Below are positions 1,405 through 62,625 of a DNA stretch of 64,000 nt, piece after piece. The notes beneath the pieces are model-generated. The model made no database searches. It had not been told where the DNA came from and was given only the letters and a program-made list of their open reading frames with translations. The translations under genes were made by a program, and so were the position numbers. This DNA is from an uncultured Clostridia bacterium (GTDB taxonomy: Bacteria; Bacillota; Clostridia; TANB77; CAG-508), in the NCBI GenBank assembly GCA_934180065.1, contig CAKPRA010000004.1, positions 4,786 to 68,785 of the forward strand. Direction: 5' to 3'. Numbering within the stretch: the first letter of the stretch is position 1; every line of letters begins with the position of its first letter.

Positions 1405-1995
1405 ATGAAAGAAATATTAATAATATGTGCAATGGAAAAAGAATCAAAAACAATAGCACAAGAGCTAAAATTAGAAAAAGTTACAGAAACTATATTTAGA
1501 AAAAATAATATATCACTACTTATATCAGGAATAGGAAAACAAAAAACAGCAATAAATTTAACAAAATATTTATGTGAAAATATCAGACCAGATTTAATAG
1601 TAAATATAGGATATGCAGGTTCAACAGACATAAAAATAGGAACTTGGGTAAATATAACTAAATCATATAATTACGAATGGAATATACCAGGAGAAGAAAA
1701 ATACAGTTTCTTAGACTATGGAAATCAAGAGCTAGAGCTAATAAAAAATACAGAAATACAAAAAGTAGAATGCTATTCAGCAGAAAGTTTTGTAACTAAA
1801 ACTGACTTAACAGGGCACTTAGCATTTGATATGGAACTTCATTCAGTAGCAGTAATAGGTGATATGTTCAAAATACCAGTAATGTCTTTAAAAAAGATAA
1901 GTGATAATTTAAGTTTAGAAGATTATTACGATAATACAGAGGATAATGAAAATGTATTTGAATTAAGTAGTTCATTAAAATTATTAGATTTGTAA
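1405..1995 (+). CDS. PNP/UDP-family nucleosidase (MTA/SAH nucleosidase-like)
   Basis: The N-terminal IICAMEKE motif resembles the MtnN IIGAMEEE motif. At 196 aa it is shorter than canonical MtnN. Confidence 0.5.
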   Translation: MKEILIICAMEKESKTIAQELKLEKVTETIFRKNNISLLISGIGKQKTAINLTKYLCENIRPDLIVNIGYAGSTDIKIGTWVNITKSYNYEWNIPGEEKYSFLDYGNQELELIKNTEIQKVECYSAESFVTKTDLTGHLAFDMELHSVAVIGDMFKIPVMSLKKISDNLSLEDYYDNTEDNENVFELSSSLKLLDL

Positions 1996-2007
1996 ATAAA
2001 AATTATG

Positions 2008-2040
2008 TGTCAAAGGGTTGACAACCTTCCCCATTGACAA
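2008..2040. repeat. degenerate REP-like element (gtgtcaaagggttgacaaccttccccattgacaa)
   Basis: Shares the CCCCATTGACAA end and the GTCAA...TTGAC arrangement with the dispersed repeat family. Confidence 0.4.
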
Positions 2041-2214
2041 AATTGGATTGTTTTATAGTTATTTAATAATACTAGAACAGATAGATAGAAAATGAATATG
2101 ATAAAATGAGTTTTATTAGTTGACAAGTGTTTTGTACTTTTGATATATTTTATTTATATAATTTTTATAAAAATTTAAAAACAAAAGCAAAAATTAAAAA
2201 GGAGGAATTTTATA

Positions 2215-2925
2215 ATGAAAAAAGCAGGAAAGATTATATTAATATTAGTGATTGTACTACTAATAGGAGGAATCATATGTGGAGTATATTTTTTATATAA
2301 AAATAATGAAGAATCAAACAAGAAAATTGCTGAACTAGAAAATAAAATTGCTACTATTAATAATGAAGATAAAAGCAATTCTTCAAACGAAGTAATAAAT
2401 GATAAAAAAAATAATAAAACGAATAATGAAATTAATAATAAAAAAATAACAGTAAAAGAATTTTCAGATAATGATGTAGTAGCAAGTAATGGATTAAAAC
2501 TTGGTATGTTTGGAGAAGACGTTATTAAGATTATAAAAGATGAACCATCAGATCATAAAACAATAAATGAAGATGCAACAGGAGATATTGTAAATCAAAG
2601 TAAATATGACAATTTAGGACTAGAATTAGAATACCGTAGTGAAGATGGAGAAGGAACACTAAGTAGTATAACATGGACAAAAAATAGCATAAAAACAGCA
2701 AGAGGTATAACAATAGGATCAACAGAATCTGAAGTATTATCTGCATATACAAAAGATTCAATACTTGCAATTGATAATGAGCAATCAGATGGTACTAAAA
2801 TAGTTACAATTGGATATAAAGGTGACGATCCAGTTTATAATGTAAATAACAAAAGTAAAATATTTATAACTATTTCGTCAGGAAAAGTTACTAAAATAGT
2901 TATAAGTTATGGACATTTAAATTAA
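2215..2925 (+). CDS. membrane-anchored hypothetical protein (N-terminal TM helix, Asn/Lys-rich linker, C-terminal GLKLG..FEDV domain)
   Basis: An RBS (aaggagg) lies upstream. The protein has a TM helix. Its C-terminal domain is paralogous to the lipoprotein at 3615..4280. Confidence 0.6.
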   Translation: MKKAGKIILILVIVLLIGGIICGVYFLYKNNEESNKKIAELENKIATINNEDKSNSSNEVINDKKNNKTNNEINNKKITVKEFSDNDVVASNGLKLGMFGEDVIKIIKDEPSDHKTINEDATGDIVNQSKYDNLGLELEYRSEDGEGTLSSITWTKNSIKTARGITIGSTESEVLSAYTKDSILAIDNEQSDGTKIVTIGYKGDDPVYNVNNKSKIFITISSGKVTKIVISYGHLN

Positions 2926-2951
2926 TACAATTTATAAGAGTAATTAATTAT

Positions 2952-2978
2952 AAAGAGAGAAGTTTAAATTCTCTCTTT
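2952..2978 (+). terminator. rho-independent terminator (aaagagagaagtttaaattctctcttt + T-run)
   Basis: Perfect hairpin followed by ttttgtttt. Confidence 0.6.
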
Positions 2979-3331
2979 TGTTTTATGTGTCAATATAGAT
3001 AAAGCCTTTGACAAATTTTAGCATGTTTCTTTTTTGGGATTTTGAGATTATCAAAAAGCTTCATTGATATTGACATTTTTTGAAAAATAAAAAAATGTTG
3101 ACTCATAAAAGTAATTAATATAGAATCAAGTAAAAGAGGAGGAAACAAAAAAGCAATGTTGAAAGTTAATGAAAATAAAATTAAGAAAGAATATAGTATA
3201 AAAGTAATTAGGCAAAAGAATAGAGCACTAAAAAAAGTGAAAAAATATATTTTTTGCGTTTTTTAAAGCCTACTGTTACAAAAGAAGAAAGTTGGTATGT
3301 AAAATAAAAAAATAAATAAAGGAGGATATTT

Positions 3332-3504
3332 ATGAAAAAGAAAAATTTTTTAATAGTTTTATCAATGATAATGTTATCGTTGATTTTATTTGGAAGTGTA
3401 GTAGATGCTGATAAAAAACAGCCAGCTAATTTATCGATTTCTGTTAATTCAACTGCAGTAAAAAAAGGTGACGAAGTAGAACTTAGTATTAGTGGAACAA
3501 ATAT
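3332..3504 (+). pseudogene. 5' fragment of a secreted Ig-like-domain protein, truncated by a REP pair
   Basis: A signal peptide is followed by NLSISVNSTAVKKGDEVELSISG. The ORF then reads into the REP (MGTELFDSF) and stops at 3556. Confidence 0.45.
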
Positions 3505-3587
3505 GTCAATGGGGACGGAGCTTTTTGACAGCTTTGGACATTTTAAAGCTGTTTAAAAGTTGTCAAAGAGAATCGTCCCCATTGACT
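3505..3587. repeat. inverted REP pair (BIME-like hairpin)
   Basis: gtcaatggggacggagctttttgacagc ... ttgtcaaagagaatcgtccccattgac. The two halves are reverse complements. Confidence 0.85.
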
Positions 3588-3614
3588 CGCATAATATTTT
3601 TAAGGAGGAGAAAA

Positions 3615-4280
3615 ATGAAAAAAACTATTTCAATTTTAGGTATAATTTTAATATTGACAGTCAGTTTTCTTGGTTTTTCAGGCTGTGGAAGCAAAGATGA
3701 AAACAAGGAAAAAAATGAAGATCAAAATGGTACTGCAATAGCAGGTAAAAAAGAAGAATCAAAAGATCCAATAAATGATAACGATTCATATTATTTTATA
3801 TATGATGGAAAGAAATTTAAAGCAGGAGATAAAGTTTCTAGTATAGAAGAAAAAACAGAATTGGTTTTAAGAGAAAAAGAAAAAACAGAAGATGTTCCAG
3901 CTAATAAATATATGATTGGTGCAGGATATATACAAACAGCAGAAAAGAAGACTTCTTTTTATGTAACACCATATAATACAGAAAATTCAGCAGTAAAAAT
4001 TCCAGATACATACATAGGCGGTTTTGATTTAAATTCAACTAATCTAAAAAATGATAGCAAATTAGCCGATGTTGAAGTTGTTGGAGGATTAAAATTAGGA
4101 TCTTCATTTGAAGATGTAAAAAAAGTATTCGGAGAAACTGAAGATATATATGAAGGAACAAATTATGATCAATATACATATAAATCAAAAGAAGTATATA
4201 GATCTTATGTATTCAAATTCAGTAAAGATGAGAAGAAAGTTATAGAAATTACTTGGAAAAACTTAGTTTTTAATAAATAA
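3615..4280 (+). CDS. lipoprotein (lipobox LGFSGC), paralogous C-terminal domain to 2215..2925
   Basis: An RBS (aggagg) lies upstream. Signal peptide plus Cys lipobox. The GGLKLGSSFEDVKKVF motif is shared with the upstream gene. Confidence 0.7.
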   Translation: MKKTISILGIILILTVSFLGFSGCGSKDENKEKNEDQNGTAIAGKKEESKDPINDNDSYYFIYDGKKFKAGDKVSSIEEKTELVLREKEKTEDVPANKYMIGAGYIQTAEKKTSFYVTPYNTENSAVKIPDTYIGGFDLNSTNLKNDSKLADVEVVGGLKLGSSFEDVKKVFGETEDIYEGTNYDQYTYKSKEVYRSYVFKFSKDEKKVIEITWKNLVFNK

Positions 4281-4308
4281 GTCAATGGGGACGGTTCTTT
4301 TTGACAAC
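4281..4308 (+). repeat. REP-like element
   Basis: gtcaatggggacggttctttttgacaac, starting immediately after the lipoprotein stop codon. Confidence 0.85.
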
Positions 4309-4335
4309 TTTAAAACTAACTTCTTCAGGCTCTTA

Positions 4336-4450
4336 GTCAAGAGTCTTGGTTAAGAAGTTAAAAATATGACTTTTGGTCAAGAGCTGGGATAAATGAGTTG
4401 AAAAATATGGCTCTTATTTAAGAGCTGGGGTGAATGAGTTGAAAAATACT
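4336..4450. repeat. three degenerate ~35-40 bp tandem repeats (aagagctggg.t.aatgagttgaaaaata)
   Basis: Direct visual alignment of three units in the convergent intergenic region. Confidence 0.6.
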
Positions 4451-4664
4451 TATTCGCTCTTTTTTTTTACCATTTTTAAAATTGTAAGCGAAATTAATGA
4501 TATTTTATTATAAGTATGCATTTTATAATACCTCCTTAGTGTTAGGTTTTGTTGCTTAAATTCTATAAGGTAATTTAAATAAGTGCATATTTGGGGCAAA
4601 AAACATGTTGGAGTTTTATCACCTAAACACTTATTATGTAAATCGTCTTAAAAATTCCTGAAGT

Positions 4665-4738
4665 TGTCAAAGAGAACCGTCCCCATTGACAAACTTGTCA
4701 AAGAGAACCGTCCCCATTGACTGCCCATTGACCGCCAT
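4665..4738 (-). repeat. two tandem REP-like elements in reverse orientation plus a CCATTGAC mini-array
   Basis: ttgtcaaagagaaccgtccccattgac occurs twice (4665-4690 and 4695-4721). It is followed by tgcccattgaccgccattg. Confidence 0.85.
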
Positions 4739-4741
4739 TGC

Positions 4742-6010
4742 CTAAATTCTGAGCAAACTAATCCATCTTTTAAATAAATAAGAACTCATATTTGCAAAAC
4801 TGTTTTTCTTTACAGTTTTATCTGAAACTATATCAACACTACATAACTGTTTTCCATCAAGAAAATAATTAATCTCTCCAATTTTTTCTCCTTTTGAGAT
4901 AGGAGCTGCTATAGTATCAGGAATATTTACTTCTTGCACTATTTTTGATTCCTGACCTTTTGGAATTAAAATGGATTTTGTATTTGAAAATGTAGCATTT
5001 ATTCTGCTCTCAACGCCCCTTTGTACAGATACAGTTTTTAATATATCATTGCTTGTTGATAATTGGCTAGATGTATAGTTTTTAAATCCATAATCTAGTA
5101 ATGTTTTTGCCTCTGAAAATCTAAGAGCTGTTGATGGAGCCTTCATTATAACAGCAATTAAATTCAAGTTATCTCTAGTAGCACTTGCAGATAAGTTATA
5201 TAATGCAAGACTTGTAGATCCTGTCTTTAAACCGGTGCAACCTTCATAATTTCTAACTAATTTATTTGTATTAACAAGTTGAGATTTTCCATCACGAATT
5301 GAATCCATCCAAATAGTGGTATAATTTTTTATTGAAGGGTGATTATTTAATAATTCTCTAGACATTATTGCAATATCATGAGCACTTGTAACATGACCAT
5401 CTTCATCAATACCATGGCAATTTTTAAAATGAGTATCATTCATTCCAAGCTCTTTAGCTCTAGCATTCATTTTTTCGACAAAATTTTCTGTACTTCCACA
5501 TAAATATTCAGCCATAGCAACAGTACAGTCATTTGCAGAAACAACACACATACATTTTAACATTTCATTAACAGAAAGATTTTCTGTTGTCGTAAGCCAA
5601 ATCTGTGAACCTCCCATAGAGCTTGCGTTTTCACTACATGGAACTTTATCATCAAGTTTGATTTTGCCAGAATCAAGCTCTTCCATAATTAGTAATATAG
5701 ACATTATTTTCGTCACACTTGCTGGGCGTAATTGCTCATGAATATTGTGCTCATATAAAATTTGACCAGAATCTTGGTCAATTAAAATAGCTGATCCAGA
5801 CTGTAAATTTAGAGGATTCTCTTTTGATGTATTATTTTCATTATTATCTGTATTTTGTGTATCTGTTTCACCTGTTGAAGTTTCTAATGTATCTTCATAA
5901 TTAGACCAAGCATATGAGTCTAAAGCCAAAGCAGTAGTATTTATGCTTGTTATAATTGATAAAATGAACAAAACAGATAATGTTTTTATAATTAAAGATT
6001 TATAGTTCAT
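4742..6010 (-). CDS. dacB: D-alanyl-D-alanine carboxypeptidase (serine-type, PBP5/6 family)
   Basis: Signal peptide. SxxK (ASVTK), SxN (SAN) and KTG motifs are present. The C-terminal domain is typical of PBP5. Confidence 0.8.
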   Translation of the reverse strand: MNYKSLIIKTLSVLFILSIITSINTTALALDSYAWSNYEDTLETSTGETDTQNTDNNENNTSKENPLNLQSGSAILIDQDSGQILYEHNIHEQLRPASVTKIMSILLIMEELDSGKIKLDDKVPCSENASSMGGSQIWLTTTENLSVNEMLKCMCVVSANDCTVAMAEYLCGSTENFVEKMNARAKELGMNDTHFKNCHGIDEDGHVTSAHDIAIMSRELLNNHPSIKNYTTIWMDSIRDGKSQLVNTNKLVRNYEGCTGLKTGSTSLALYNLSASATRDNLNLIAVIMKAPSTALRFSEAKTLLDYGFKNYTSSQLSTSNDILKTVSVQRGVESRINATFSNTKSILIPKGQESKIVQEVNIPDTIAAPISKGEKIGEINYFLDGKQLCSVDIVSDKTVKKNSFANMSSYLFKRWISLLRI

Positions 6011-6953: not shown

Positions 6954-9900
6954 ATGGCAGACGTTAAGTGGACAAATGAACAAAAAGATGCAATATTTGA
7001 CAAAGGTTCAAACATATTAGTAGCAGCAGCTGCTGGAAGTGGTAAAACTGCGGTATTAGTAGAGCGTATTATTAACAAGGTTATAAATGAAAATGTTGAT
7101 ATAGATAAAATTCTAGTAGTTACTTTTACAAATGCTGCAGCAAGTGAAATGAGAGAGCGTATACTAGAAGCTATTTATAAAAAAATGGAAGAGCTTCCTG
7201 ATAATAAAAACTTACAAAAACAAGTTATTTTAATTAATAAAGCAAGCATTTGTACAATAGATTCATTTTGCTTAGATGTTATAAGAAACAACTTTTTTGA
7301 AATAGATGTATCTGCAAATTTCAGAGTAGCAGATACAACCGAAATAGAGCTATTAAAACAAGAAGTGATTGATGATATTTTTGAGGAAAAATATATATCA
7401 AATGATAAAAAATTCTTAAAATTAATAAACACATATACAACATACAGAGATGATGAACCCCTAAAAGAGCTGTTATTGAATATTTTTCGATATATCCAAA
7501 GCAACCCATTTCCAAATCAATGGCTTCATGAAAAAATTGAAATGTTTAATTTAAATAAATCTGATGATTTTTCAAATACTTTATGGGGAAAGATTTTATT
7601 AGAAAATTTAAACCAAGAGCTTTCAGATTATGTTATAAATTTAAAGAAAATAGAGCGTGATTTAGCAAGATTTGAAGAGCTAGAAAAATACAGATTAGTA
7701 ATTAGTGAAGATATAATAAATTTAGAATATGTGCAAGAAAATCTTGGCTCATGGGACAATGCCTATGAAAAAGCTTCAAATATAAAATGGACAAATTGGC
7801 CAAAAGATTCAAAAATTACATTAGAGCTAAAAGAAACAGCAAAAAGCTTAAGAGATTCTATAAAAAATAAATACAAAAAAACTATTTCTAAAGTTTTATT
7901 ATATAATTCTAAAGAGGCTAATGAAAACATTTATAATATGTATGAAATATTAAAAGATGTAGAAACATTGGTATTAGAGTTCTCAGAGCAGTTTGCTTTA
8001 AGAAAAAAAGAAAAAAATATGGTAGATTTTAATGATATAGAGCATTTTGCGTTAAATATTTTAGTAAAAAGAAATGATGATGGAACAATTGAAGAAACCG
8101 ATATTGCTAAAAAATATAAGGAAAAATTTACCGAAATAGCAATAGATGAATATCAAGACAGTAACTATGTGCAGGAATATATATTAACAAGTGTATCTAA
8201 AGGAAATAATGTTTTCATGGTAGGGGACGTAAAACAAAGTATTTATAAATTTAGACAAGCATGTCCAGATTTGTTTTTAGAGAAATATAATAAATATAAT
8301 CTGAAAAATGAAAATATAGTTAATGGTCAAAAAATTCAATTGTTTAAGAATTTCAGAAGTAGGTCAAATATTTTAGATGTTACAAATATAATATTTGAAA
8401 ATATTATGAGCGAAAAACTTGGAGATATAAAATATGATAAAACCGAATTTTTAAATTTAGGTGCAGATTATAAAGAACCATCAGATTCTGAAATAAAAAA
8501 TTTTGCAGGGAAAACTGAGCTTCATGTAATTGATTTAAAAGAGCCGGAAATTAATGTTTTTAAAGACATTCAAGAAGATGAAGAGGAAGAAGATAATTCT
8601 AATCAAGAAAGAATAGAAGATGTTGTATTAGAAGCAAGGTTTGTTGCTAGAGAAATCAAAAAATTAATTGATAGTGACTATATGGTTTTTGATAAAAAAA
8701 CAAAAGAATATAGACACATTACATACAAAGATATAGCCCTTTTGTTAAGAGCAACATCAGTAACAGCTCCTATATATGAAAATGAAATAGCTAAATTGAA
8801 TATGCCAGTTTTTAGTGATGTATCTTCTGAATATCTTGAATCAATGGAAATTCAGACCATAATGGCAACATTAAAAATCATAGATAATCCAATGCAAGAC
8901 ATTCCACTTGTAACAGTTTTAAGGTCTGTAATTGGAGGGTTTACAGATAATGAATTAGTAAAGATTCGTTTAAAAAATAAAAAGCAATCATTTTATAAAT
9001 CACTAGAAGAATATGATGGTGATGATAATTTAAAATCAAAGATTGATGTTTTTTTACTTAGTATAAAAAAGTGGCAAGAGCAAGAAAAATACATGGCTCT
9101 TGATGAGCTTATTTGGCAAATATATATAGATACACAATTTTATAATTATGTAACATTAATGCCAAATGGAGCATTAAGACAAGCTAATTTGAAAATGCTT
9201 TTTGAAAGAGCAAAACAGTATGAAAGCGCTAGTTTTAAAGGGTTATTTAATTTTATAAGTTTTATAGATAAACTTCATACAAGCAGTGGTGACCTATCCT
9301 CTGCAAAATTAATTGGAGAAAATGAAAATGTAATTAGAATAATGAGTATTCATAAAAGTAAAGGTCTAGAATTTCCAGTTGTCTACTTATGTGGAACAGG
9401 AAAACAGTTTAATATGCAAGATTTAAATAAAAATATTTTATTACATCAAGATTTGGGAATAGGACCTAAATATATAAATAACGAGAGAAACATTGAGTAT
9501 AATACTTTGGCAAAAGAAGCCATAAAAATACAAACAAAATTAGAATCTTTATCTGAAGAAATGAGAGTATTATATGTGGCTCTAACAAGAGCAAAAGAAA
9601 AGCTTATAATAACAGGAATTTGTAAGGATGCAGATAAATCATTTAAGGAAAAGCAAGACTTAATTAGCACTTATAAAGCTGTATCAAATAACAATGAAAT
9701 AAGTGCATCAATTATAAAACAATATAAAACATATTTGGATTGGATTACATTAGTTTATTTTAATAATATAAATATTATAAAAGATTATATAGATTTAGAA
9801 ATACATAAAAAAACTGATTTAATAAAAGAATTTGAAAAAAGTAAAGAGCAAGTTCTAGAGCGTGATATTTTCAAAGAGCTTAAACAAAAATCTAAAAATG

Positions 9901-10703
9901 TAAAAAGTGAAGATATTGAACAATTGAAAGATAAAATATTGTGGTCATATAAATATGCAGACTCTGTTGAGATTCCAACTAAGACATCTGTTACAAAAAT
10001 AAAGGAGCTTTCAAATGAAGAAAATATTGTAAGTATAGAAGAGCTAGAGGAACAGAAAGAATTCAAAAAGGAAATGGCAAAACCTAAATTTTTAAATGAA
10101 GAAGAGAAACTTTCAGCAGCACAAAAAGGTACATTAATGCATTTATGTTTTCAAAGGCTTGATCATACTAGAGATTATACAAAAGCACAGATACAGGACT
10201 TTGTGCAAGATTTGGTAAATAGAAATATAATAACAAAATTAGAAGCAGATAGCATTAATATAAATAAGCTTTTTGATTATACTAATTCAAGCTTATGGAA
10301 AGAGCTTAAATTGGCTAAGAAAGTTTATAAAGAGCAACCATTTTATATTAATTTAAAATCAAAAGATATTTATAATAATAATTCAAATGAAAATATTCTA
10401 GTTCAAGGAATTATAGATTTATATTATATAAATAAAAATGATGAAATAATTTTAGTTGATTATAAAACTGATTGGATTGAAGAAGGAGAAGAGCTTAAGC
10501 TGGTTGAGAAATATGCCAAACAGCTAGAAATATATAAAAATGCATTAGAGCAAGCATTAGGTAAAAAAGTAAACAAAAAATATATTTATTCTGTGTCAAT
10601 GGGGACGGTTCTCCTTGACACGTCTTGTCAAAAAGTGTCAATAGGGACGGTTCTCCCTGACACGTCTTGTCAAAAAGAACCGTCCCCATTGACCGCCAAT
10701 TGA
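6954..10703 (+). CDS. addA: ATP-dependent helicase/nuclease subunit A (AddA/RexA-like: UvrD helicase plus C-terminal PD-(D/E)XK nuclease). The C-terminal 35 aa are encoded by REP repeats
   Basis: The Walker A motif is GSGKTAVLVERI and the UvrD motifs are present. The nuclease motif is IDLYY...VDYKTD. The tail VSMGTVLLDTSCQK... is a translated REP. Confidence 0.8.
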   Translation: MADVKWTNEQKDAIFDKGSNILVAAAAGSGKTAVLVERIINKVINENVDIDKILVVTFTNAAASEMRERILEAIYKKMEELPDNKNLQKQVILINKASICTIDSFCLDVIRNNFFEIDVSANFRVADTTEIELLKQEVIDDIFEEKYISNDKKFLKLINTYTTYRDDEPLKELLLNIFRYIQSNPFPNQWLHEKIEMFNLNKSDDFSNTLWGKILLENLNQELSDYVINLKKIERDLARFEELEKYRLVISEDIINLEYVQENLGSWDNAYEKASNIKWTNWPKDSKITLELKETAKSLRDSIKNKYKKTISKVLLYNSKEANENIYNMYEILKDVETLVLEFSEQFALRKKEKNMVDFNDIEHFALNILVKRNDDGTIEETDIAKKYKEKFTEIAIDEYQDSNYVQEYILTSVSKGNNVFMVGDVKQSIYKFRQACPDLFLEKYNKYNLKNENIVNGQKIQLFKNFRSRSNILDVTNIIFENIMSEKLGDIKYDKTEFLNLGADYKEPSDSEIKNFAGKTELHVIDLKEPEINVFKDIQEDEEEEDNSNQERIEDVVLEARFVAREIKKLIDSDYMVFDKKTKEYRHITYKDIALLLRATSVTAPIYENEIAKLNMPVFSDVSSEYLESMEIQTIMATLKIIDNPMQDIPLVTVLRSVIGGFTDNELVKIRLKNKKQSFYKSLEEYDGDDNLKSKIDVFLLSIKKWQEQEKYMALDELIWQIYIDTQFYNYVTLMPNGALRQANLKMLFERAKQYESASFKGLFNFISFIDKLHTSSGDLSSAKLIGENENVIRIMSIHKSKGLEFPVVYLCGTGKQFNMQDLNKNILLHQDLGIGPKYINNERNIEYNTLAKEAIKIQTKLESLSEEMRVLYVALTRAKEKLIITGICKDADKSFKEKQDLISTYKAVSNNNEISASIIKQYKTYLDWITLVYFNNINIIKDYIDLEIHKKTDLIKEFEKSKEQVLERDIFKELKQKSKNVKSEDIEQLKDKILWSYKYADSVEIPTKTSVTKIKELSNEENIVSIEELEEQKEFKKEMAKPKFLNEEEKLSAAQKGTLMHLCFQRLDHTRDYTKAQIQDFVQDLVNRNIITKLEADSININKLFDYTNSSLWKELKLAKKVYKEQPFYINLKSKDIYNNNSNENILVQGIIDLYYINKNDEIILVDYKTDWIEEGEELKLVEKYAKQLEIYKNALEQALGKKVNKKYIYSVSMGTVLLDTSCQKVSIGTVLPDTSCQKEPSPLTAN

Positions 10704-10730
10704 CCACCAATTGACCGGCCAGATTGACAC
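10595..10730. repeat. REP cluster: two direct copies, one inverted copy, then a CCAATTGAC array
   Basis: gtcaatggggacggttctccttgaca, then gtcaatagggacggttctccctgaca, then ttgtcaaaaagaaccgtccccattgac. These are followed by cgccaattgaccaccaattgaccggccagattgacac with a period of about 10-11 bp. Confidence 0.85.
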
Positions 10731-16897: not shown

Positions 16898-17073
16898 GGA
16901 AAAGGGGACGGTTCTCTTTTCCCAGATTTGGGAAATAGGGACACAGTCCAAAGCAAATGAGATACGCTTTTTTTCTGTAAAGGGAGAAATAGGGACAGTC
17001 TAGATTAAATGAAATACGCTTTTTTTGGCAAAATGGAGAAAGAAAATGGAAAAGAGAGCCGTCCCCTTTTCCC
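16898..17073. repeat. 176-bp MITE-like element whose terminal inverted repeats carry the REP core
   Basis: The left end is ggaaaaggggacggttctcttttccc and the right end is ggaaaagagagccgtccccttttccc, which is its reverse complement. An internal direct repeat reads aaatga(g/a)atacgcttttttt. Confidence 0.8.
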
Positions 17074-42696: not shown

Positions 42697-43056
42697 AAAA
42701 AATTGAGCTTCCATAAAATCAAAATTATGGTAGCTCTTTTTATATGTTAAATAAAGTAATAAGATTATAACACATAAAGAGAATAAATAATGTTCAGGAT
42801 AGTTTGATTGAATTTAGTGAAAACATATATTAAATGTTTAACTTTAACATGAGATGTATTTAAATCCGCTATATTCTACTTTTCCATTTTTAACTTGTAA
42901 AACTTATGTTTAAAATAAAAACAATGGTCAAAGCCATGCCGGTTGCTGAGATAAAAAGGTTGAAATAAATTCTGTTTTATAAATCATATCATTGATTTTG
43001 TAATCTTTTTAAGATATAATATCCGAATAAAATATAAGATACAGAAAGGGAATGAG

Positions 43057-47444: not shown

Positions 47445-48308
47445 ATGAAGAGAAAATTTATACTAATAATAAGTGTAATAATAATTCTAATTATATCTGT
47501 ATGTGTTTTATTATTAAATAAAAGCAAAGAAGTTGCAAAAAATAGTGATGAAATATATATAAACGTTGAAAATGAGTTTATGGCTGAAAATACTAATAAT
47601 GTTACAAATAATATAATATCAGAAAAAAATGAAGAAAAAACGATTAGTACTGCAAGTAATGAGCAAAAAGTAGATAAAAATGTTAATCAAAATAACGTTG
47701 ATGTAAATAAAAAAGTAGAAAAAACAGAAAATAAAAATCAAACAAGCTCAAACAGCAATATTAGTAAAGAAAATAATGCACCAACTGGTAAAACTACATA
47801 TTATATCAAGGTAAATTATGGAGCTAATGCAGTTACTATATACAAAAAAGATGAAAACGGTTATTACACAGTTCCAGTAAAGGCAATGATTTGTTCATGT
47901 GGAACTGCAACACCGAAAAGTGGTGTTTATAAAACATCTAAGGGATATGAATGGGGAACTTTAGAAGGAGGAACATATGGTAGGTATTCTACTAGAATAA
48001 AGGGTGGCATTTTATTTCACTCTGTTCCATATGTGTCAGAAAGTGAGGATTCATTAGAATATTGGGAATATGATAAATTAGGAACGACAGCATCTTTAGG
48101 TTGTGTTAGACTTGCAGTGGCTGATTCAAAATGGATATTTGATAATTGTGAAGTTGGAACTCAAGTCGAGTTTTATTCAGATACAAATCCAGGACCACTA
48201 GGAAAACCAACTGCCCAAAAAATATCTGATAATGAGAAATGTAGAAATTGGGATCCAACAGATACTTCTCCAAATAGCCCATGGGTCAATGGGGACGGTT
48301 CTCTTTGA
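47445..48308 (+). CDS. L,D-transpeptidase (YkuD domain). The last 8 codons are encoded by a REP
   Basis: HSVPY....SLGCVRL catalytic motif. The tail WVNGDGSL comes from gggtcaatggggacggttctctttga. Confidence 0.75.
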   Translation: MKRKFILIISVIIILIISVCVLLLNKSKEVAKNSDEIYINVENEFMAENTNNVTNNIISEKNEEKTISTASNEQKVDKNVNQNNVDVNKKVEKTENKNQTSSNSNISKENNAPTGKTTYYIKVNYGANAVTIYKKDENGYYTVPVKAMICSCGTATPKSGVYKTSKGYEWGTLEGGTYGRYSTRIKGGILFHSVPYVSESEDSLEYWEYDKLGTTASLGCVRLAVADSKWIFDNCEVGTQVEFYSDTNPGPLGKPTAQKISDNEKCRNWDPTDTSPNSPWVNGDGSL

Positions 48309-48311
48309 CAA
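48285..48311 (+). repeat. REP-like element
   Basis: gtcaatggggacggttctctttgacaa. Confidence 0.85.
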
Positions 48312-48853: not shown

Positions 48854-48880
48854 GTCAATGGGGACGGTTCTCTTTGACAA
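48854..48880 (+). repeat. REP-like element
   Basis: gtcaatggggacggttctctttgacaa. Identical to the copy at 48285. Confidence 0.85.
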
Positions 48881-49199: not shown

Positions 49200-50279
49200 A
49201 TGGAAAGTTTAAAGGAATATAGACCTAGTATAATTAATAAACTAAAATTATTTCTAAGCAGAATTGAACAAAGAAAAACAATTGAAAAAAATTTAGATAA
49301 ATTAGATATCAGTTTATTTTCTTCCAATAATATTGATTATATAATACAAAATAAAGAAAAATTTAAAAGTACAAGTGGTATGCCAGATCCACAAAAAGAA
49401 ATTATGACTATTGAAGATAAACTTGGAATAGTAATGGACTTTTTCAATGATTTAAATTCTAGTTTAGGGAAAAAAGTTAAAGATACATATTTAAAATATA
49501 AAACGCAAATTTATTTTGATGAGTGCAGTGATAAAAATAAAGAAATTGGTGATGGTTTCACTAGCGGACATAATAGAAGTACATCCATTATGTGTGGCGA
49601 TGGTATTGAAAGACCAAATCTTATAGCAAGAATTTGTACCAATAAAAATAATGCACTAGATATATATAATATAGCTCACGAATTCACACATATATTGCTA
49701 AACGAAAATACTAAAGAAAAAAACATTAGTGCTGAAAACCAAGAAATTGCAACTAGATTTACAGAAATCTTGTTGGGCGAATATATGGAAAAAAGAAAAA
49801 TTATCACAACAGAAGACAAAGAAAATCACAACATATGTATATCAGGCGAAATAGATAAAGCATATCAGCTCAATGAATATAGAATTTTAAGAAACCTAAT
49901 TAAAAACAATGGAAATAAATTTGATAAGAAATTAGAAAAAACATGTATTTCTAAATATTGCAAAGGAAATAAAAACTGGTATTACCAAATATTATCAAAC
50001 ATAGCATATAGATTAGAAAGAACCGGCAAAGTAGACGGTTTTCAAAATTACTTAAGATTTGTTAATTCAGCAGCAGAATGTGATAAATTAAAACAAGCAT
50101 ATATTGAAAATCCCGATTTAATAAAAAAAGCTTTTTCTCAATGTTTAATGAGTCAGCATAGTATTACGTACAATGATGTAGTGAAAAAGAGGTCAATGGG
50201 GACGGTTCTTTTTGACACAAAAAACATTGACGTTTTACAGCAAGTAAAGAAAAAAGATACATACGAAATTACTCATTAA
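49200..50279 (+). CDS. hypothetical protein with an HExxH motif (putative zinc metallopeptidase). An in-frame REP insertion lies near the C-terminus
   Basis: HEFTH motif. A REP at 50192-50219 is translated as RSMGTVLFDT. Confidence 0.45.
   Translation: MESLKEYRPSIINKLKLFLSRIEQRKTIEKNLDKLDISLFSSNNIDYIIQNKEKFKSTSGMPDPQKEIMTIEDKLGIVMDFFNDLNSSLGKKVKDTYLKYKTQIYFDECSDKNKEIGDGFTSGHNRSTSIMCGDGIERPNLIARICTNKNNALDIYNIAHEFTHILLNENTKEKNISAENQEIATRFTEILLGEYMEKRKIITTEDKENHNICISGEIDKAYQLNEYRILRNLIKNNGNKFDKKLEKTCISKYCKGNKNWYYQILSNIAYRLERTGKVDGFQNYLRFVNSAAECDKLKQAYIENPDLIKKAFSQCLMSQHSITYNDVVKKRSMGTVLFDTKNIDVLQQVKKKDTYEITH
50192..50219 (+). repeat. REP-like element inside a coding sequence
   Basis: gtcaatggggacggttctttttgacaca. 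Confidence 0.85.
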
Positions 50280-50994: not shown

Positions 50995-51033
50995 GTCAAT
51001 AGGTGTCAATAGGGGACGGTTCTTTTTGACACA
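50995..51033 (+). repeat. REP-like element (partial copy plus full copy)
   Basis: gtcaataggtgtcaataggggacggttctttttgacaca. Confidence 0.8.
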
Positions 51034-51061
51034 AAAACATTGCCATTTTTACATCAAAAAT

Positions 51062-51322
51062 AAAGAAAAAGCTAAATACATACGTAAAAATTCAACCTAA
51101 AAGCTATTGTATATCCTTCTGATTGTTTCTCTTCCTATATTTAATTCTTTTGAAATTCATGGATGAAGCACCAATTTTTTTATACCTCGCTTTCAGTTTT
51201 TTTACATAGCGCTCTGAAAAATTCAACCTGTTTGCTGCAACTTTGATAGTCATAGTTCCAGTAATACAACTTTGTATTACTGCTTTTTTTAATTCTTCTT
51301 TTTTATTCATAACAGTTCTCAT
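51062..51322 (-). pseudogene. remnant of a REP-associated tyrosine transposase copy (3' end duplicated from 52131-52230 but frameshifted), with an HTH N-terminal part
   Basis: DNA 51066-51160 is about 95% identical to 52136-52230, which is the 3' end of the RAYT gene plus downstream sequence. The reading frame differs. An HTH-like segment VAANRLNFSERYVKKLKARY is present. Confidence 0.5.
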
Positions 51323-51526
51323 ACCTCCATTATATCATAGGGTGAACTTTTCATAAGTTAATTTTATAGGGTGATCATATCATAAATTAGGTTAAATTTA
51401 AGAAATAATTGCAATTTACATAAAATTATGTTATAATATTAGTATGATTGGGAATTCACCCATGAAACACACTTTTAGTGTGGTAACATTGACAACCTTA
51501 TATACAGGTATACAGGAGGAAAAAAT

Positions 51527-52003
51527 ATGGAGTATGGAAGAATCATGCATACTTTAGAATGTGACACTTTAACACCAGAGAAACTTCTTGAAGCCATCTT
51601 AAAAATGGTAAGAGAAAGTTACTTTCTTGTAAAAAAAGCCATCGAGGCAATTCCCGATAAGGAAATAGAAAACTTCTTGAATGAAGCTTTTCTTATTTCA
51701 AGAATTAGAGTTAATTTCTTTGAAAGAAATGTGTACTTTGAGGATTGTTTTACAAAAGAGCACATTTTTTCTTTTACACCAACAGAAAAAGATTTTTTCG
51801 AAGGAAATGCGTTCATTAAGATTGAGGTACTTCCTCTTAGAAAGGCAATTGAAATATGCTACGAAGACCTTGAATTCTCAGATTCATACATCCGAGAGAT
51901 GTTCGAAAATTTGGATTTCAAAGCGTATTTCGGTAAGTATTTTATCGGAGAAAATCTGGCAACAAGCGATATAATCGTCTCTGAGGAGTTCTTTGCTAAT
52001 TAA
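51527..52003 (+). CDS. hypothetical protein
   Basis: 158-aa ORF with an RBS (caggagg). A terminator lies at about 52038-52072. Confidence 0.4.
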   Translation: MEYGRIMHTLECDTLTPEKLLEAILKMVRESYFLVKKAIEAIPDKEIENFLNEAFLISRIRVNFFERNVYFEDCFTKEHIFSFTPTEKDFFEGNAFIKIEVLPLRKAIEICYEDLEFSDSYIREMFENLDFKAYFGKYFIGENLATSDIIVSEEFFAN

Positions 52004-52077
52004 TTAAAACCTACTGTCATCTACAGAAAAAGGTTGCAAAAAAAGTCCCTCTCATTTGGGGACTTTTTTGTTGCTCT

Positions 52078-52105
52078 GTCAATGGGGACGGTTCTTTTTG
52101 ACACA
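52078..52105 (+). repeat. REP-like element flanking the 3' side of the RAYT gene
   Basis: gtcaatggggacggttctttttgacaca. Confidence 0.85.
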
Positions 52106-52168
52106 AAAACATTGCCATTCTTACATCAAGAATAAATAAAAAGCTAAATACATACGTAAAAATTCAAC

Positions 52169-52873
52169 CTAAGAGCTATTGTATAGCCTTCTAATTGTTT
52201 CTCTTCCTATATTTAATTCTTTTGAAATATTTCTTAAAGAAATATGTTTTTTATCTTTCAATAATCTTATAAGATCCGATAAAATAATTTTATTATTTTT
52301 TAATTCTGAAGTATCTATATGATATTCCTCTAAAAATTTTCTAATAAAATCTTTGCACTCAGTATTATTATTTTTATCATCATCCACATCGATAAAGACA
52401 TATTCATCATCCAAATCTTTATTATTTAAATCCTTATTGAATTTTTTATAATTTGAATAAGGATAATCTTCGGCTTTTTGGCAAATACCAGCTTTTACAG
52501 GATTATTAAAGATATAATTTATGCAATTATATAAGTGTTTCTTACTGTAGATTCCTTCAGCCTTATATCTATCTCGAAAAACATAGCCTACTCTATTGTA
52601 TTTTTTATTATAGTACATACTATATCGTATGTTAAGACGTTGCATGTATTTGCTAAGATCTTTTAAACTATTGGATTCAATTAAAATATGTGTATGATTA
52701 TTCATAATACAATAAGCAATTATATTAATTTTATGTTCAGTAAGTAAATCATACATTATTTTTATATAATACTTAATATCTTGTGTTTCATCAAAAATAT
52801 AGCTTTTATTAATTCCTTGGGTAATAATATGAAAAAAAGATGTTTGAATAAAACTTCTTGGTTGTCTTGGCAT
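52169..52873 (-). mobile_element. REP-associated tyrosine transposase (RAYT, IS200/IS605 TnpA-like Y1 HUH enzyme) with a C-terminal HTH
   Basis: HuH motif HTHILIE. Catalytic Tyr region YIFNNPVKAG. The C-terminal part LRNISKELNIGRETIRRL is an HTH. The gene is bracketed by inverted REP copies at 52078-52105 and 52985-53013. Confidence 0.75.
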
Positions 52874-52984
52874 AAAATCTCCTAAATATTGTGAAATAAA
52901 ATTATATATATAATATCATAAGAATAATAAAAAAAATGTCGAAATGTGCTTTACTACATAATTTTTTGGAATTAATAGACAAAG

Positions 52985-53013
52985 TTGTCAAAAAGTTCCG
53001 TCCCCATTGACAT
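52985..53013 (-). repeat. REP-like element (reverse orientation) flanking the 5' side of the RAYT gene. It carries the TTGACA used as the ppdK -35
   Basis: ttgtcaaaaagttccgtccccattgacat. Confidence 0.85.
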
Positions 53014-53040
53014 ATTTTTTTGATTTTATGTTATAATAAT
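53006..53040 (+). promoter_or_regulatory. sigma-A-type promoter of ppdK (TTGACA-N18-TTATAAT), with the -35 contributed by the REP end
   Basis: ttgacatatttttttgattttatgttataat, followed by an RBS (aaggagg) and the ATG at 53083. Confidence 0.55.
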
Positions 53041-55710: not shown

Positions 55711-55920
55711 GAGAAAGAAGAGCAAAGAAGAAAAAAGAAAAGAAAGGAAAAGACGGAAAAAGGAAGAGAAAGAGGAGGGAAAGAGGAGGGAAAAGGGGAC
55801 GGTTCTCATTGACAACCTTAAAAAAAGGTTGTCAATGAGAACCGTCCCCTTTTCCCTCCTCTTTCCTCCTCTTTCTCCTTCTTCCGCTTTTCTCTTCCGC
55901 TCTTTCTTTCTTCTTTCTGG
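55711..55920. repeat. roughly 210-bp imperfect palindrome: polypurine arm, REP core, ttaaaaaaa, REP core (reverse complement), polypyrimidine arm
   Basis: ggaaaaggggacggttctcattgacaacc ttaaaaaaa ggttgtcaatgagaaccgtccccttttcc. The flanks are aag/agg repeats on the left and their reverse complement on the right. Confidence 0.9.
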
Positions 55921-59543: not shown

Positions 59544-59731
59544 AATGTAAAGCTAAGGTTTGTATAATGCAGATCTTAGCTTTTTTTGAATAAAAATCAT
59601 TTTACTGTTAATAATATTGACAACGAAATACATAATGCAAACAAAAAGTATATGAAGGTCAAGAAAACATTGACAAAGGTATACATATGATGTATAATAT
59701 GTATAAGGATGTCAAAAAAGAGGGTGATTTT

Positions 59732-60319
59732 ATGAATAATTATGAAAAAATAAAAGCCTTGTTAAAAGAAAATAATGGAATTTTATATGTAAAAGATTTG
59801 GAAAAACAAAATATACATAGACAATATCTTAAAAATCTAGAAGAAAGAGGAGAAGTTATTAGACTTATAAAAGGTTTGTATGTAAGCTCTGATAAAGATG
59901 TAAATGAATTCTTTGTCATGGGAGAGCGATATAAAACAGGAATCTTTTCACATAATACAGCATTGTATTTTTACAAATTAACAGATAGAACACCTTTTAA
60001 TTTAGATATGACTTTTCCAAGTAATGTGAGAGTGAATTTTGATTGTTTGGATGCACATTATATAAAACCAGAGCTTCATGATTTAGGGGCAACAGTAATG
60101 AATTTGGAAGATGGTACATCAATTAGAATCTATGATTTAGAGCGAACTATATGTGATATAATTCGTGATAGAAATAAGATTGATCCTCAAATTTTTAATA
60201 ATGCTATGAAAGAATATTTTAAATTATCAAATAAAAACTTGAATTTATTGTATAAATATGCTAAAAAATTATGTATAGACAAAATTTTAAAACATTATAT
60301 GGAAGTATTAGATAATTAG
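59732..60319 (+). CDS. AbiEi-family antitoxin / transcriptional regulator (type IV TA)
   Basis: GILYVKDLEKQNIHRQYLKNLEERGEVIRLIKGLY is an AbiEi wHTH. It pairs with the downstream AbiEii-like nucleotidyltransferase. Confidence 0.7.
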   Translation: MNNYEKIKALLKENNGILYVKDLEKQNIHRQYLKNLEERGEVIRLIKGLYVSSDKDVNEFFVMGERYKTGIFSHNTALYFYKLTDRTPFNLDMTFPSNVRVNFDCLDAHYIKPELHDLGATVMNLEDGTSIRIYDLERTICDIIRDRNKIDPQIFNNAMKEYFKLSNKNLNLLYKYAKKLCIDKILKHYMEVLDN

Positions 60320-60350
60320 TAAACTAAAGACGTAATTGGAGGAACAGAAT

Positions 60351-61247
60351 ATGAAGAAAAATACAATGAGTTTAAAAGCTACAATAAATAATATAGCTAA
60401 AGAAAATAAGGTGTCAGCTCAATCAGTATTACAAACATACATGTTAGAGCGATTATTAGAAAGAATATCAGTATCCCAATATAAAGATAACTTTATATTA
60501 AAAGGAGGGATGCTGATTTCTGCTATGTTGGGAATAGATAGTAGAACAACAATGGATATTGATACTACAATAAAGGGTTTTGAGTTAACAGAAGAGAATG
60601 TAAAAAAGATTATGGAAGATGTCTGTAAAATAGATTTACATGATGATATAACTTTGAAGATAAATAGGGTAGAGGAGATAAGAGAAAATGATGATTATAA
60701 TGGGTATAGATTGACTTTTGAAGCAAAATATATGAATAATATGCCTGTTATTATGAAAATTGATGTTACAACAGGTGATAAAATAACATATAGAGAGATT
60801 GAATATAGTTTTGAATTAATGTTAGAGAACAGGAAAATCAATATTTGGTCATATAATGTAGAAACAGTTTTGGCAGAAAAATTCGAGGCTATAATAAAAA
60901 GGGGAGTTTTAGGAACAAGAATAAGAGATTTTTATGATGTTCATATGTTATTGAAAACCCAAATAAAAAATGTTGATAAAAAAACATTAAGAGTTGCAAT
61001 AATGTATACAGCAGAGCATAGGGGGTCTTTAGACATTATGAAACAATGGAAAGAGATTGTTGAGGAATTAAAAGATGATGAAACAATGATAAGTCAATGG
61101 AAGAGATATAAGAAAAATAATTTTTACGCTGAAGGGATAGATTATAAAGATTTAATAGACAGTATAATTGTGATTGGCGAAATATGGGATGGAAACTTTG
61201 AAGGTGGAGAAGTAGAGCTAGATAATAGTAAACTTTGTTTAGTATAA
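60351..61247 (+). CDS. AbiEii/AbiGii-family nucleotidyltransferase toxin (DUF1814)
   Basis: The size, the position after abiEi, and a nucleotidyltransferase-type G[GS]...D.D pattern (KGGMLISAMLGIDSRTTMDIDTT). Confidence 0.65.
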   Translation: MKKNTMSLKATINNIAKENKVSAQSVLQTYMLERLLERISVSQYKDNFILKGGMLISAMLGIDSRTTMDIDTTIKGFELTEENVKKIMEDVCKIDLHDDITLKINRVEEIRENDDYNGYRLTFEAKYMNNMPVIMKIDVTTGDKITYREIEYSFELMLENRKINIWSYNVETVLAEKFEAIIKRGVLGTRIRDFYDVHMLLKTQIKNVDKKTLRVAIMYTAEHRGSLDIMKQWKEIVEELKDDETMISQWKRYKKNNFYAEGIDYKDLIDSIIVIGEIWDGNFEGGEVELDNSKLCLV

Positions 61248-62270: not shown

Positions 62271-62625
62271 CTCCTAAGCTACACGTTAGTTTTTGTTCAA
62301 TTTTTTTTGGTCCGGAGATGTAGATATATATATTAAAATTCGTGACTTGCTGGTCGCCCATACAAAGTGGTGTGAGAATGGTAGTGCCCTCATTTAAATT
62401 GGGTGACATCATAAAAGCAACTAAATGCTCCCAAGCTGCACGTTAGTTTTTGTTCAATTTTTTTGGTCCGGAGATGTAGATATATATATTAAAATTTGTG
62501 ACTTGCTGGTCGCCCATACAAAGTAGTGTGAGAATGATAGTGCCCTCATTTAAATTGGGTGACATCATAAAAGCAACTAAATGCTCCCAAGCTGCGCGTC
62601 ACTTCTTTTTAATATATATATCTAC
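62271..62625. repeat. two direct copies of a roughly 158-bp unit, followed by a short inverted segment; GC is higher than the surroundings
   Basis: Unit 62281-62438 is about 97% identical to unit 62439-62594. It is followed by the reverse complement of ggagatgtagatatatatattaaaa at 62600-62625. Confidence 0.8.

Follow-up and report, generated by a model that had tools for sequence, protein, structure and literature searches.

Does a transposase gene belong with the short repeats that surround it and, if so, which kind of system do the two form? The question is raised by a 64-kb stretch of DNA from an uncultured gut bacterium of the Clostridia (27% GC), here called the window, to which copy counts refer unless stated otherwise. 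A gene on its minus strand (52169..52873) encodes an HUH/Y1 single-strand DNA transposase-like protein of 234 amino acid residues, and it lies between two copies, opposite in orientation, of a dispersed repeat. The first-pass annotation had read this gene as a tyrosine transposase associated with repetitive extragenic palindromes (REPs), that is a REP-associated tyrosine transposase (RAYT), with a decayed second copy nearby. Our preferred reading, to which we give a probability of about 0.7, is that the locus is a TIRtron-type unit made of a Y1 HUH single-stranded DNA endonuclease/transposase gene and its cognate hairpin element. The feature is real, a domesticated transposase gene with dispersed hairpin repeats, and it is an example of a described but little-studied class, not a new type of system.

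The transposase gene and its product

The open reading frame (ORF) shows both motifs pointed out in the first-pass annotation: the HUH motif, H60-T-H62 in NNHTHILIE (H60/H62 codons at 52688-52696, minus strand), and the tyrosine motif, Y120-x3-N124-P125 in YIFNNPVKAG (Y120 codon at 52514-52516, minus strand), which is the class 2 signature Y-x3-NP. The Y1_Tnp profile match and the conservation of the His and Tyr residues, both named there as checks, were found as well. The Pfam Y1_Tnp profile matches the protein with 45.6 bits (cut-off 23), and H60, H62, Y120, N124 and P125 are invariant in 37 close homologs and invariant or nearly so in 60 distant ones. Furthermore, the NCBIfam model REP_Tyr_transpos (NF047646, an equivalog model with a curated cut-off of 80 bits) gives 78.4 bits (E=4.8e-22) and is matched by all 60 of 60 diverse relatives, while the NCBIfam IS200 model gives 17.9 bits and its cut-off of 55 is not reached. 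At the sequence level, the placement of the protein as a putative Y1 HUH enzyme on the RAYT side of the superfamily is supported.

A fold comparison was needed because the sequence-only search of PDB with phmmer gave a weak match alone, 4er8 with E=0.042. The AlphaFold (AF2) model, with a pLDDT of 80.5, shows an N-terminal alpha/beta catalytic core (residues 1-145), a linker predicted as disordered (residues 150-169) and a C-terminal helical domain modeled as a five-helix helix-turn-helix (HTH) domain (residues 171-232). The top PDB match of this model is 4er8, E. coli TnpAREP with its REP hairpin (E=2.9e-7, TM 0.68), and the next-best structural matches are the TnpA proteins of ISDra2 and IS608.

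The C-terminal HTH claimed in the first-pass annotation holds, with weak Pfam matches (HTH_11, E=0.002) and a confident five-helix model (pLDDT 86) when the last 70 residues are modeled alone. The final 40 residues superpose on HTHs of the DeoR/SorC/sigma-region-4 type within 0.6-0.9 A, with Foldseek E-values that are not significant. HTH_23 is found in four of the 60 relatives, and the other C-terminal HTH matches are generic. No Bac_DnaA_C match was obtained in the profile search, and assignment of the domain to DnaA domain IV or to one single HTH family failed in both profile and structure comparison. Relatives of this HTH also give weak matches to sigma-70 region 4, and the canonical stem arms of the repeat correspond to the sigma-70 -35 hexamer, TTGACA, on both strands. 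This likeness may be a coincidence, because stem variants of the repeat exist without TTGACA.

Between the upstream repeat and the ATG, a promoter-like site (TCGACA-16 nt-TATGAT, 52915..52942, minus strand) was assigned by consensus match only, and the ATTTCGACA...TATGATATAAT arrangement is found 5' of homologs too. A 3' untranslated tail of 65 nt (52104..52168, minus strand) links the stop codon to the downstream repeat and is part of a unit duplicated at 51005 and, partly, at 50191.

The window contains one full copy of the transposase gene in its 64 kb. The exact same 234-residue protein is encoded on contigs of several human gut metagenomes, and on all strain contigs shown its gene has ppdK on one side and the same 158-residue ORF on the other. 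Among the fetched loci, the nearest named relative is Clostridium sp. CAG:492, with 80-83% nucleotide identity.

Inverted repeats around the gene and its homologs

The upstream flanking repeat (52986..53012, minus strand, TGTCAATGGGGACGGAACTTTTTGACA) is in the sense of the gene, with its core 125 nt before the ATG; the downstream one (52077..52103, plus strand, TGTCAATGGGGACGGTTCTTTTTGACA) is antisense to the gene, with its core 88 nt after the stop. The inverted copies and their positions, as given in the first-pass annotation, agree with ours within 1-2 nt. Homologs with 82, 60 and 56% identity, located at unrelated loci, show the same motif bracket with the same polarity. The bracket was present in all seven of the first seven homologous loci, and an upstream sense copy together with a downstream antisense copy was found in 11 of 12 RAYT loci, including that of a homolog with 31% identity. 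The upstream core precedes the ATG by 125-184 nt in most loci, and the downstream one is 21-26 nt past the stop in eight of 11.

A metagenome scan with a diverse alignment gave 80 relatives of 25-57% identity, of which 53 had both flanks present. A flanking inverted repeat with a score of at least 14 was found in 32 of these 53, versus none of 156 controls with mismatched flanks, and most flanking arms of these distant relatives carry GGGGAC(G/A)G. Their loop is GGGGACGG or GGGGACAG with differing stems, so that the sequence of the bracket changes along with the protein. Because the bracket recurs around homologs and in 32 of the 53 distant relatives with both flanks, enzyme and repeat are associated as a trait of the family and by no coincidence of this locus. 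The conserved bracket is the strongest available evidence that the two belong together.

The recurrence of the bracket bears directly on the proposal that the repeats spread or persist by host processes or by another enzyme, and that the Y1 gene is found between them only because mobile genes prefer to land at such repeats. Insertion sequences are known to target REPs (Tobes and Pareja 2006, as cited in PMC5581495), the locus of the gene varies from species to species, and a homolog was present in only eight of at least 118 repeat-bearing stretches, as this proposal would have it. However, chance landing would lead to random orientation and distance, whereas polarity and spacing of the flanking copies are the same in 11 of 12 loci; and the bracket is kept in relatives of 25-57% identity from many habitats, with stems that vary and a loop (GGGGACGG or GGGGACAG) that changes with the protein. 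We regard such a landing as very unlikely.

Structure of the repeat

From about 1 Mb of fetched DNA, every GGGGACGG core was collected, with the flanks ignored. The flanks proved to be self-complementary even where they are unlike GTCAA/TTGAC, as in the stem variants GAGTCA/TGACTC, GTGCCAAA/TTTGGCAC, GGAAAA/TTTTCC and GAAACA/TGTTTC. A perfect stem of at least 5 bp was present in 41 of 65 non-canonical copies, versus a mean of 10 and a maximum of 19 with shuffled partners. In an ungapped alignment of 144 distinct copies, 75.4% of the cells pair versus 59.7% after shuffling, and the covariation score is 0.374 versus 0.147 for shuffled partners (none of 500 shuffles reaches 0.374) and 0.11-0.15 for partners slid along the alignment. 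The element consists of an AT-rich stem of 5-10 bp and a 15-nt loop formed by 1 nt, the invariant GGGGACGG and 6 nt. Because stem changes compensate each other, it is a hairpin in which the stem is free and the 15-nt loop is fixed. A small hairpin inside the canonical copy, CTGTC/GACGG, was also considered and was rejected, being impossible in the stem variants.

Copies of the repeat and their orientation

The repeat is 25-29 nt long and its 16-mers are the commonest 16-mers of the window. The 27-nt TGTCAATGGGGACGGTTCTTTTTGACA has 12 matches with up to three mismatches versus 0.00 expected, and 19 elements per 64 kb were found when cores were counted in repeat context. Copies beside the transposase gene are located at 50192..50216 (plus strand, in the 3' end of a 359-residue ORF at 49200-50279 and continuing into about 55-80 nt with similarity to the 52104 tail), at 48285..48309 (plus strand, overlapping the stop of a YkuD-domain ORF at 47445-48308) and at 48854..48878 (plus strand, the second copy of a repeat-plus-tail unit). 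Downstream of ppdK, a head-to-head doublet (55780..55863, cores 55795+ and 55842-) forms an 84-nt near-perfect palindrome with -50.8 kcal/mol as single-stranded DNA. A second doublet is located at 3504..3586 (3504-3530 plus and 3562-3586 minus, -24.5 kcal/mol as single-stranded DNA). Between convergent genes lies a stem-variant pair, GGAAAA-GGGGACGG-TTCTC-TTTTCC (16898..17072; copies at 16898-16922, plus, and 17048-17072, minus). Three further copies are found in 4281..4721 (4281-4305, plus; 4664-4692, minus; 4697-4721, minus), and a variant with the core GGGGAAGG at 2007..2040 (minus strand). Finally, a cluster of three copies (10593+, 10635+ and 10669-) with an 11-nt stutter of the 5' arm extends over 10593..10728.

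The elements of the window are mostly located at 3' ends of genes. Three ORFs, addA (6954-10703), the YkuD-domain ORF and the 359-residue ORF, receive their last 8-36 codons and stop from repeats; in addA, these are the last 36 codons and the stop, provided by the three-copy cluster. Read-through of the repeat yields recurrent peptides, e.g., SMGTVL(F/L)DT, and a repeat likewise adds the C-terminus of the PNP_UDP_1 product in strains L218 and L220 (211 versus 196 residues). Tandem repeats adjoin repeat copies or lie between them, one of 41 nt in 2.9 copies at 4330-4448 and one of 52 nt in 2.1 copies at 16932-17041.

Beyond the window, a scan with one genome per species found GTCAATGGGGACGG-N5-TTTGAC in at least 118 stretches. 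Among the matches listed, many belong to Lachnospiraceae, Oscillospiraceae, Clostridiaceae and other Clostridia, and one is a Collinsella contig (L049, Collinsella massiliensis CAPI01000014.1, 16001-24000, 71% GC). It carries three stem-variant copies, GAGTCATT-GGGGACGG-GTTCAAxTGACTC, which represent either a cross-phylum spread of the element or a mis-binned contig. An Rfam scan at gathering scores assigned no RNA family to the repeat, and a full-text literature search for its sequence found no relevant paper. A scan of viral contigs found it in four stretches, and the repeat as mainly a phage element was rejected on this count. In the predicted viral contigs L134, L135 and L136 (IMG/VR), the repeat directly follows an apparent tRNA 3' end (...GGTTCGATTCC...ACCCGCTCCA), like a prophage attachment site.

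Neighboring copies less than 250 bp apart are arranged plus-minus in 46 cases versus minus-plus in two, with a spacing peak at 46-53 nt, and such doublets fold to long hairpins of -24 to -51 kcal/mol. Their polarity is that of the pair around the transposase gene, and polar head-to-head doublets are the REPIN pattern. Neighbors 250-3000 bp apart were on the same strand in 17 cases and on opposite strands in 34, and same-orientation arrays were therefore rejected as a general trait; the run of five same-strand repeats beside the gene may thus reflect local history. Singletons have their core on the G-rich strand in 73 cases and on the other strand in 37 (p=8e-4); in the window, the plus strand is the G-rich one. 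IS608 and ISDra2 act on the lagging-strand template, and the strand bias of the singletons fits an action of this kind.

Duplications and strain differences at repeat edges

A segment at 51003..51157 (plus strand) duplicates 52077-52230 with 96% identity. It is made up of a repeat (51003-51032, with one inserted nucleotide), the tail and the final 18 codons of the gene for the transposase (51103-51156). Between 51012-51156 and 52084-52228 the identity is likewise 96%, and the likeness begins at the 5' edge of the repeat (51004/52077). The duplication behind the decayed second copy of the first-pass annotation is thus real; the frameshifted 3' remnant at 51062-51322 was not borne out as described, since at most 18 codons are present. 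RAYT residues 216-233 (51103-51156), the 3' untranslated region and the REP are all that is copied, and a search at relaxed thresholds found nothing RAYT-like between 51160 and 51322 and no second RAYT beyond the 18 codons. The ORF at 51104..51322 (minus strand, 72 residues), which enters the duplicated segment in another frame, shows an HTH_29/HTH_28 domain like the N-terminus of ISNCY/IS481 transposases and is an unrelated HTH fragment of insertion sequence type, not derived from the RAYT. A third, weaker copy of repeat plus tail is located at 50191, and 48285 and 48854 hold the two copies of a separate unit that consists of a repeat and a tail of about 215 nt.

Strains also differ at repeat edges. 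Window positions 1945-4279 (2335 bp with three repeats and three ORFs of 236, 74 and 221 residues) are absent in strains of 98.4% identity, which show a 39-nt degenerate repeat instead (L218 11755-11793). The right junction of this segment is the exact 5' edge of the copy at 4280, and the other one lies within the 3' end of the PNP_UDP_1 gene. The same strains are without one 42-nt repeat unit and 18 nt of the 11-nt stutter at the end of addA. Furthermore, truncated copies of the 5' arm were found within 30 nt upstream of canonical repeats in 41 instances for 183 repeats, with 0 and 2 in controls; the modal form, GTCAATGGGT abutting GTCAATGGGGACGG, is present in many unrelated genomes. The hairpin 5' foot is a recurrent junction for duplications, truncated copies and strain differences. 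Truncated arms such as GTCAATGGGT and GGTCAATTGG, 6-14 nt long, are stacked directly 5' of full repeats (4722-4745, 10688-10728 and many other loci), and their count varies between strains.

The downstream repeat of the gene directly borders glyS in L007, the closest relative; in the window, the two are separated by 4.8 kb that contain four further repeats on the same strand and accessory ORFs (YkuD, 64, 359, 152, 72 and 158 residues), for which tblastn against all fetched loci gave nothing. This arrangement is compatible with another reading, in which the 5' foot is a site-specific point of breakage and joining at which the enzyme, besides copying repeats, would capture or exchange whole segments, with repeat-delimited gene cassettes accumulating by its gene. 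The 4.8 kb from glyS to the transposase gene, absent in L007, have five repeats on one strand, and at each of them a small block of accessory genes ends; block homology starts exactly at a repeat edge, the strain-specific 2335-bp segment ends at one, and truncated GTCAATGGGT copies abut full repeats in many genomes. We consider the accumulation of cassettes quite unlikely.

Comparison with known systems

The described class that comes closest is subclass 2.1 of TnpA-Y1, which contains long proteins with a C-terminal HTH of the Bac_DnaA_C, HTH_23 or HTH_28 type and for which a REP-like structure near the gene was reported absent (Quentin, Siguier, Chandler and Fichant 2018, PMC6006769). According to the same authors, the subclass corresponds to RAYT group 1 of Bertels 2017, is probably identical with the TIRYTs described by Di Nocera 2013, which have GGGGWSAS in common in their flanking inverted repeats, and is the largest RAYT-like branch, in about 15% of strains (PMC6006769). 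Some TIRYT repeats are self-complementary, and some form moderately abundant families found as dimers or clusters (Di Nocera, De Gregorio and Rocco 2013, PMC3733652). RAYT group 1 is described as the most IS-like RAYT group and as "also found in the Clostridia", and the 16-mers that flank its genes were counted only about 12 times per replicon (Bertels, Gallie and Rainey 2017, PMC5581495). The novelty of a RAYT-like enzyme in a Firmicute, put forward in the first-pass annotation, is accordingly weak.

When the protein was compared by phmmer with the sequence set published as Additional file 5 of PMC3733652, it gave 72-91 bits with long TIRYTs (gbm_2474 90.8, swd_1484 87.6 and dau_2153 82.8), versus 7-39 bits with classical RAYTs (E. 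coli YafM, b228, 16.9). With these scores, the protein most probably belongs with the TIRYTs (= subclass 2.1, RAYT group 1) and not with the classical RAYTs of GTAG REPs, and the gene is annotated as a putative TIRYT / RAYT group 1 type transposase-like gene from profile searches, residue conservation, the structure model and phmmer. The Y1 core with a C-terminal HTH is TIRYT / subclass 2.1 architecture (PMC6006769), in place of the IS200/IS605 TnpA architecture that had been proposed. As in TIRtrons, the protein has more than 200 residues and an HTH-type extension past the Y1 core, inverted flanking repeats lie at set distances with a motif like GGGG(A/T)(C/G)A(C/G) (GGGGACGG here; GGGGACAG of the relatives fits GGGGWSAS at eight of eight positions), and the flanking repeat belongs to a dispersed family with singles, dimers and clusters. 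Differences were also found. The C-terminal domain is a short HTH that is unalignable with the long TIRYT tail, the alignment ending before the domain; the repeat is a hairpin, shown by stem changes that compensate each other around an unchanging loop; there are 19 copies per 64 kb versus the low 16-mer count per replicon of group 1; and the 20-nt core pattern is common to many families of Clostridia.

The E. coli TnpAREP (YafM) system with REP/BIME and the RAYT-REPIN systems of Pseudomonas belong to RAYT groups 2 and 3 (subclasses 2.2 and 2.5). The locus resembles them in a Y1 HUH gene, single in the DNA examined, between inverted dispersed extragenic hairpins, in head-to-head doublets that form long hairpins, in the Y-x3-NP signature and in 4er8 as the best structure match. 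It differs from them in a repeat without a GTAG or CGTC head that is not a tight GC-rich palindrome, in recognition information that would lie in the large loop, in low sequence similarity (7-39 bits; 4er8 weak by phmmer), in an extra HTH domain that they lack, and in a repeat sequence conserved across families instead of being species-specific. Of the RAYT/REP assignment made in the first-pass annotation, the RAYT-like enzyme between inverted dispersed repeats stands, and the classical REP/RAYT type does not.

With IS200/IS605 elements (IS608 and ISDra2) the locus shares the HUH/Y1 fold, hairpin DNA as the presumed substrate, and an orientation bias to the strand of leading-strand composition that fits their use of the lagging-strand template. 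An active autonomous IS200/IS605 insertion sequence, with the repeats as its ends or solo ends, would be in agreement with the Y1_Tnp fold and motifs, with the partial duplicate of the gene 3' end nearby, with the different loci occupied in different species and with the IS-like character of RAYT group 1 (PMC5581495). However, the IS200 model is far from its cut-off; the gene is not multicopy in the DNA available, with one full copy in 64 kb and the same locus in all strain contigs shown; there is no tnpB; repeats outnumber the gene 19:1 in the window; and the flanking hairpins are inverted on opposite strands, whereas those of IS608 and ISDra2 lie on one strand. This explanation is highly improbable.

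Points against the TIRtron reading and a possible regulatory role

Several observations weigh against the reading of the locus as an enzyme with its cognate hairpin. The REP_Tyr_transpos score falls just below the equivalog cut-off, which would make the protein a relative and not an equivalog, and the GGGGACGG core fits the published GGGGWSAS at seven of eight positions only. On its own, a hairpin has little stability (-2.8 to -4.9 kcal/mol, in most cases not above that of shuffled sequences), and its folding probably needs the protein or the doublet context. Complementary arms could instead be kept by a dimeric protein that binds double-stranded DNA or by a palindrome-forming process, and the HTH suggests double-strand binding. 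The singleton strand bias is confounded with transcription direction. In addition, no gain or loss of a repeat was seen across window positions 42-62 kb in five strain contigs (99.3-100% identity), so that recent mobility is low.

In a rival explanation, the protein would be a domesticated DNA-binding or nicking factor. Its HTH would read each repeat in double-stranded form, as a site with inverted TGTCAA/TTGACA arms separated by 15 bp, and the repeats would have a regulatory or architectural role instead of being mobilized by the enzyme. In its favor, the confident C-terminal HTH resembles those of operator-binding DeoR/SorC proteins and of sigma region 4, the canonical arms are identical to the -35 hexamer TTGACA, the spacing between the upstream copy and the ATG is fairly constant, with a conserved promoter-like site beside the copy, single hairpins are weak, and no recent insertion polymorphism was seen in 20 kb. 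However, arms that are unrelated within one genome (GTCAA, GGAAAA and GAGTCA) are complementary nonetheless and keep the asymmetric loop, which a sequence-specific dimer would not tolerate. Moreover, most copies lie at 3' ends of genes and not at promoters, the polar doublets, 5'-edge truncated copies and edge-anchored duplications resemble products of DNA breakage and joining, and the catalytic HUH and Tyr residues are invariant. A purely regulatory or architectural role is therefore unlikely, and the TIRtron-type unit remains our preferred reading.

Other features of the window

A lone match to the Rfam CRISPR-DR3 repeat (42836-42865, minus strand; 44.7 bits, gathering score 41, E=0.022) has no surrounding array and is for this reason either an orphan repeat or a chance match. 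An intergenic 156-nt unit is repeated in 2.1 tandem copies with 95% identity at 62271-62599. Two adjacent ORFs (210 and 303 residues, 59687-61247) are the counterparts of a toxin-antitoxin / abortive infection pair, called as AbiEi_4 and AbiEii on contig L001.

Proposed mechanism and meaning of the locus

We infer catalysis, substrate strand and mobility for the enzyme as follows. It would bind the folded hairpin on single-stranded DNA, reading the GGGGACGG loop, and would cleave and rejoin at the hairpin 5' foot through Y120 and the HUH-bound metal. Cleavage and rejoining would copy or move singlets and doublets, and the enzyme would in this way be the source and maintenance enzyme of the repeats, as the first-pass annotation had suggested. 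Its own gene would stay immobile because its two hairpins lie on opposite strands, and the C-terminal HTH may contribute DNA targeting or autoregulation.

Three aspects go beyond earlier descriptions: covariation evidence that the "terminal inverted repeat" is a hairpin whose GGGGACGG loop is fixed; the polar doublets, together with how dense the family is in gut and rumen Clostridia; and the recurrent 5'-foot junction, with 5'-edge truncated copies and strains that differ in structure at the edges of repeats. Among RAYT-like branches, subclass 2.1 / group 1 is the least understood, and it was reported as only weakly tied to repeated sequences. The locus and its relatives give a testable substrate model for it, a hairpin in which the GGGGAC(G/A)G loop is fixed, the stem is free and the 5' junction is defined, and they tie this branch to dense repeat populations, including polar doublets, in gut and rumen Clostridia, which would extend the REPIN-RAYT picture past Proteobacteria. 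For uncultured gut Firmicutes, the repeats can serve as markers that are short and conserved, and structural variation is likely to concentrate at them.

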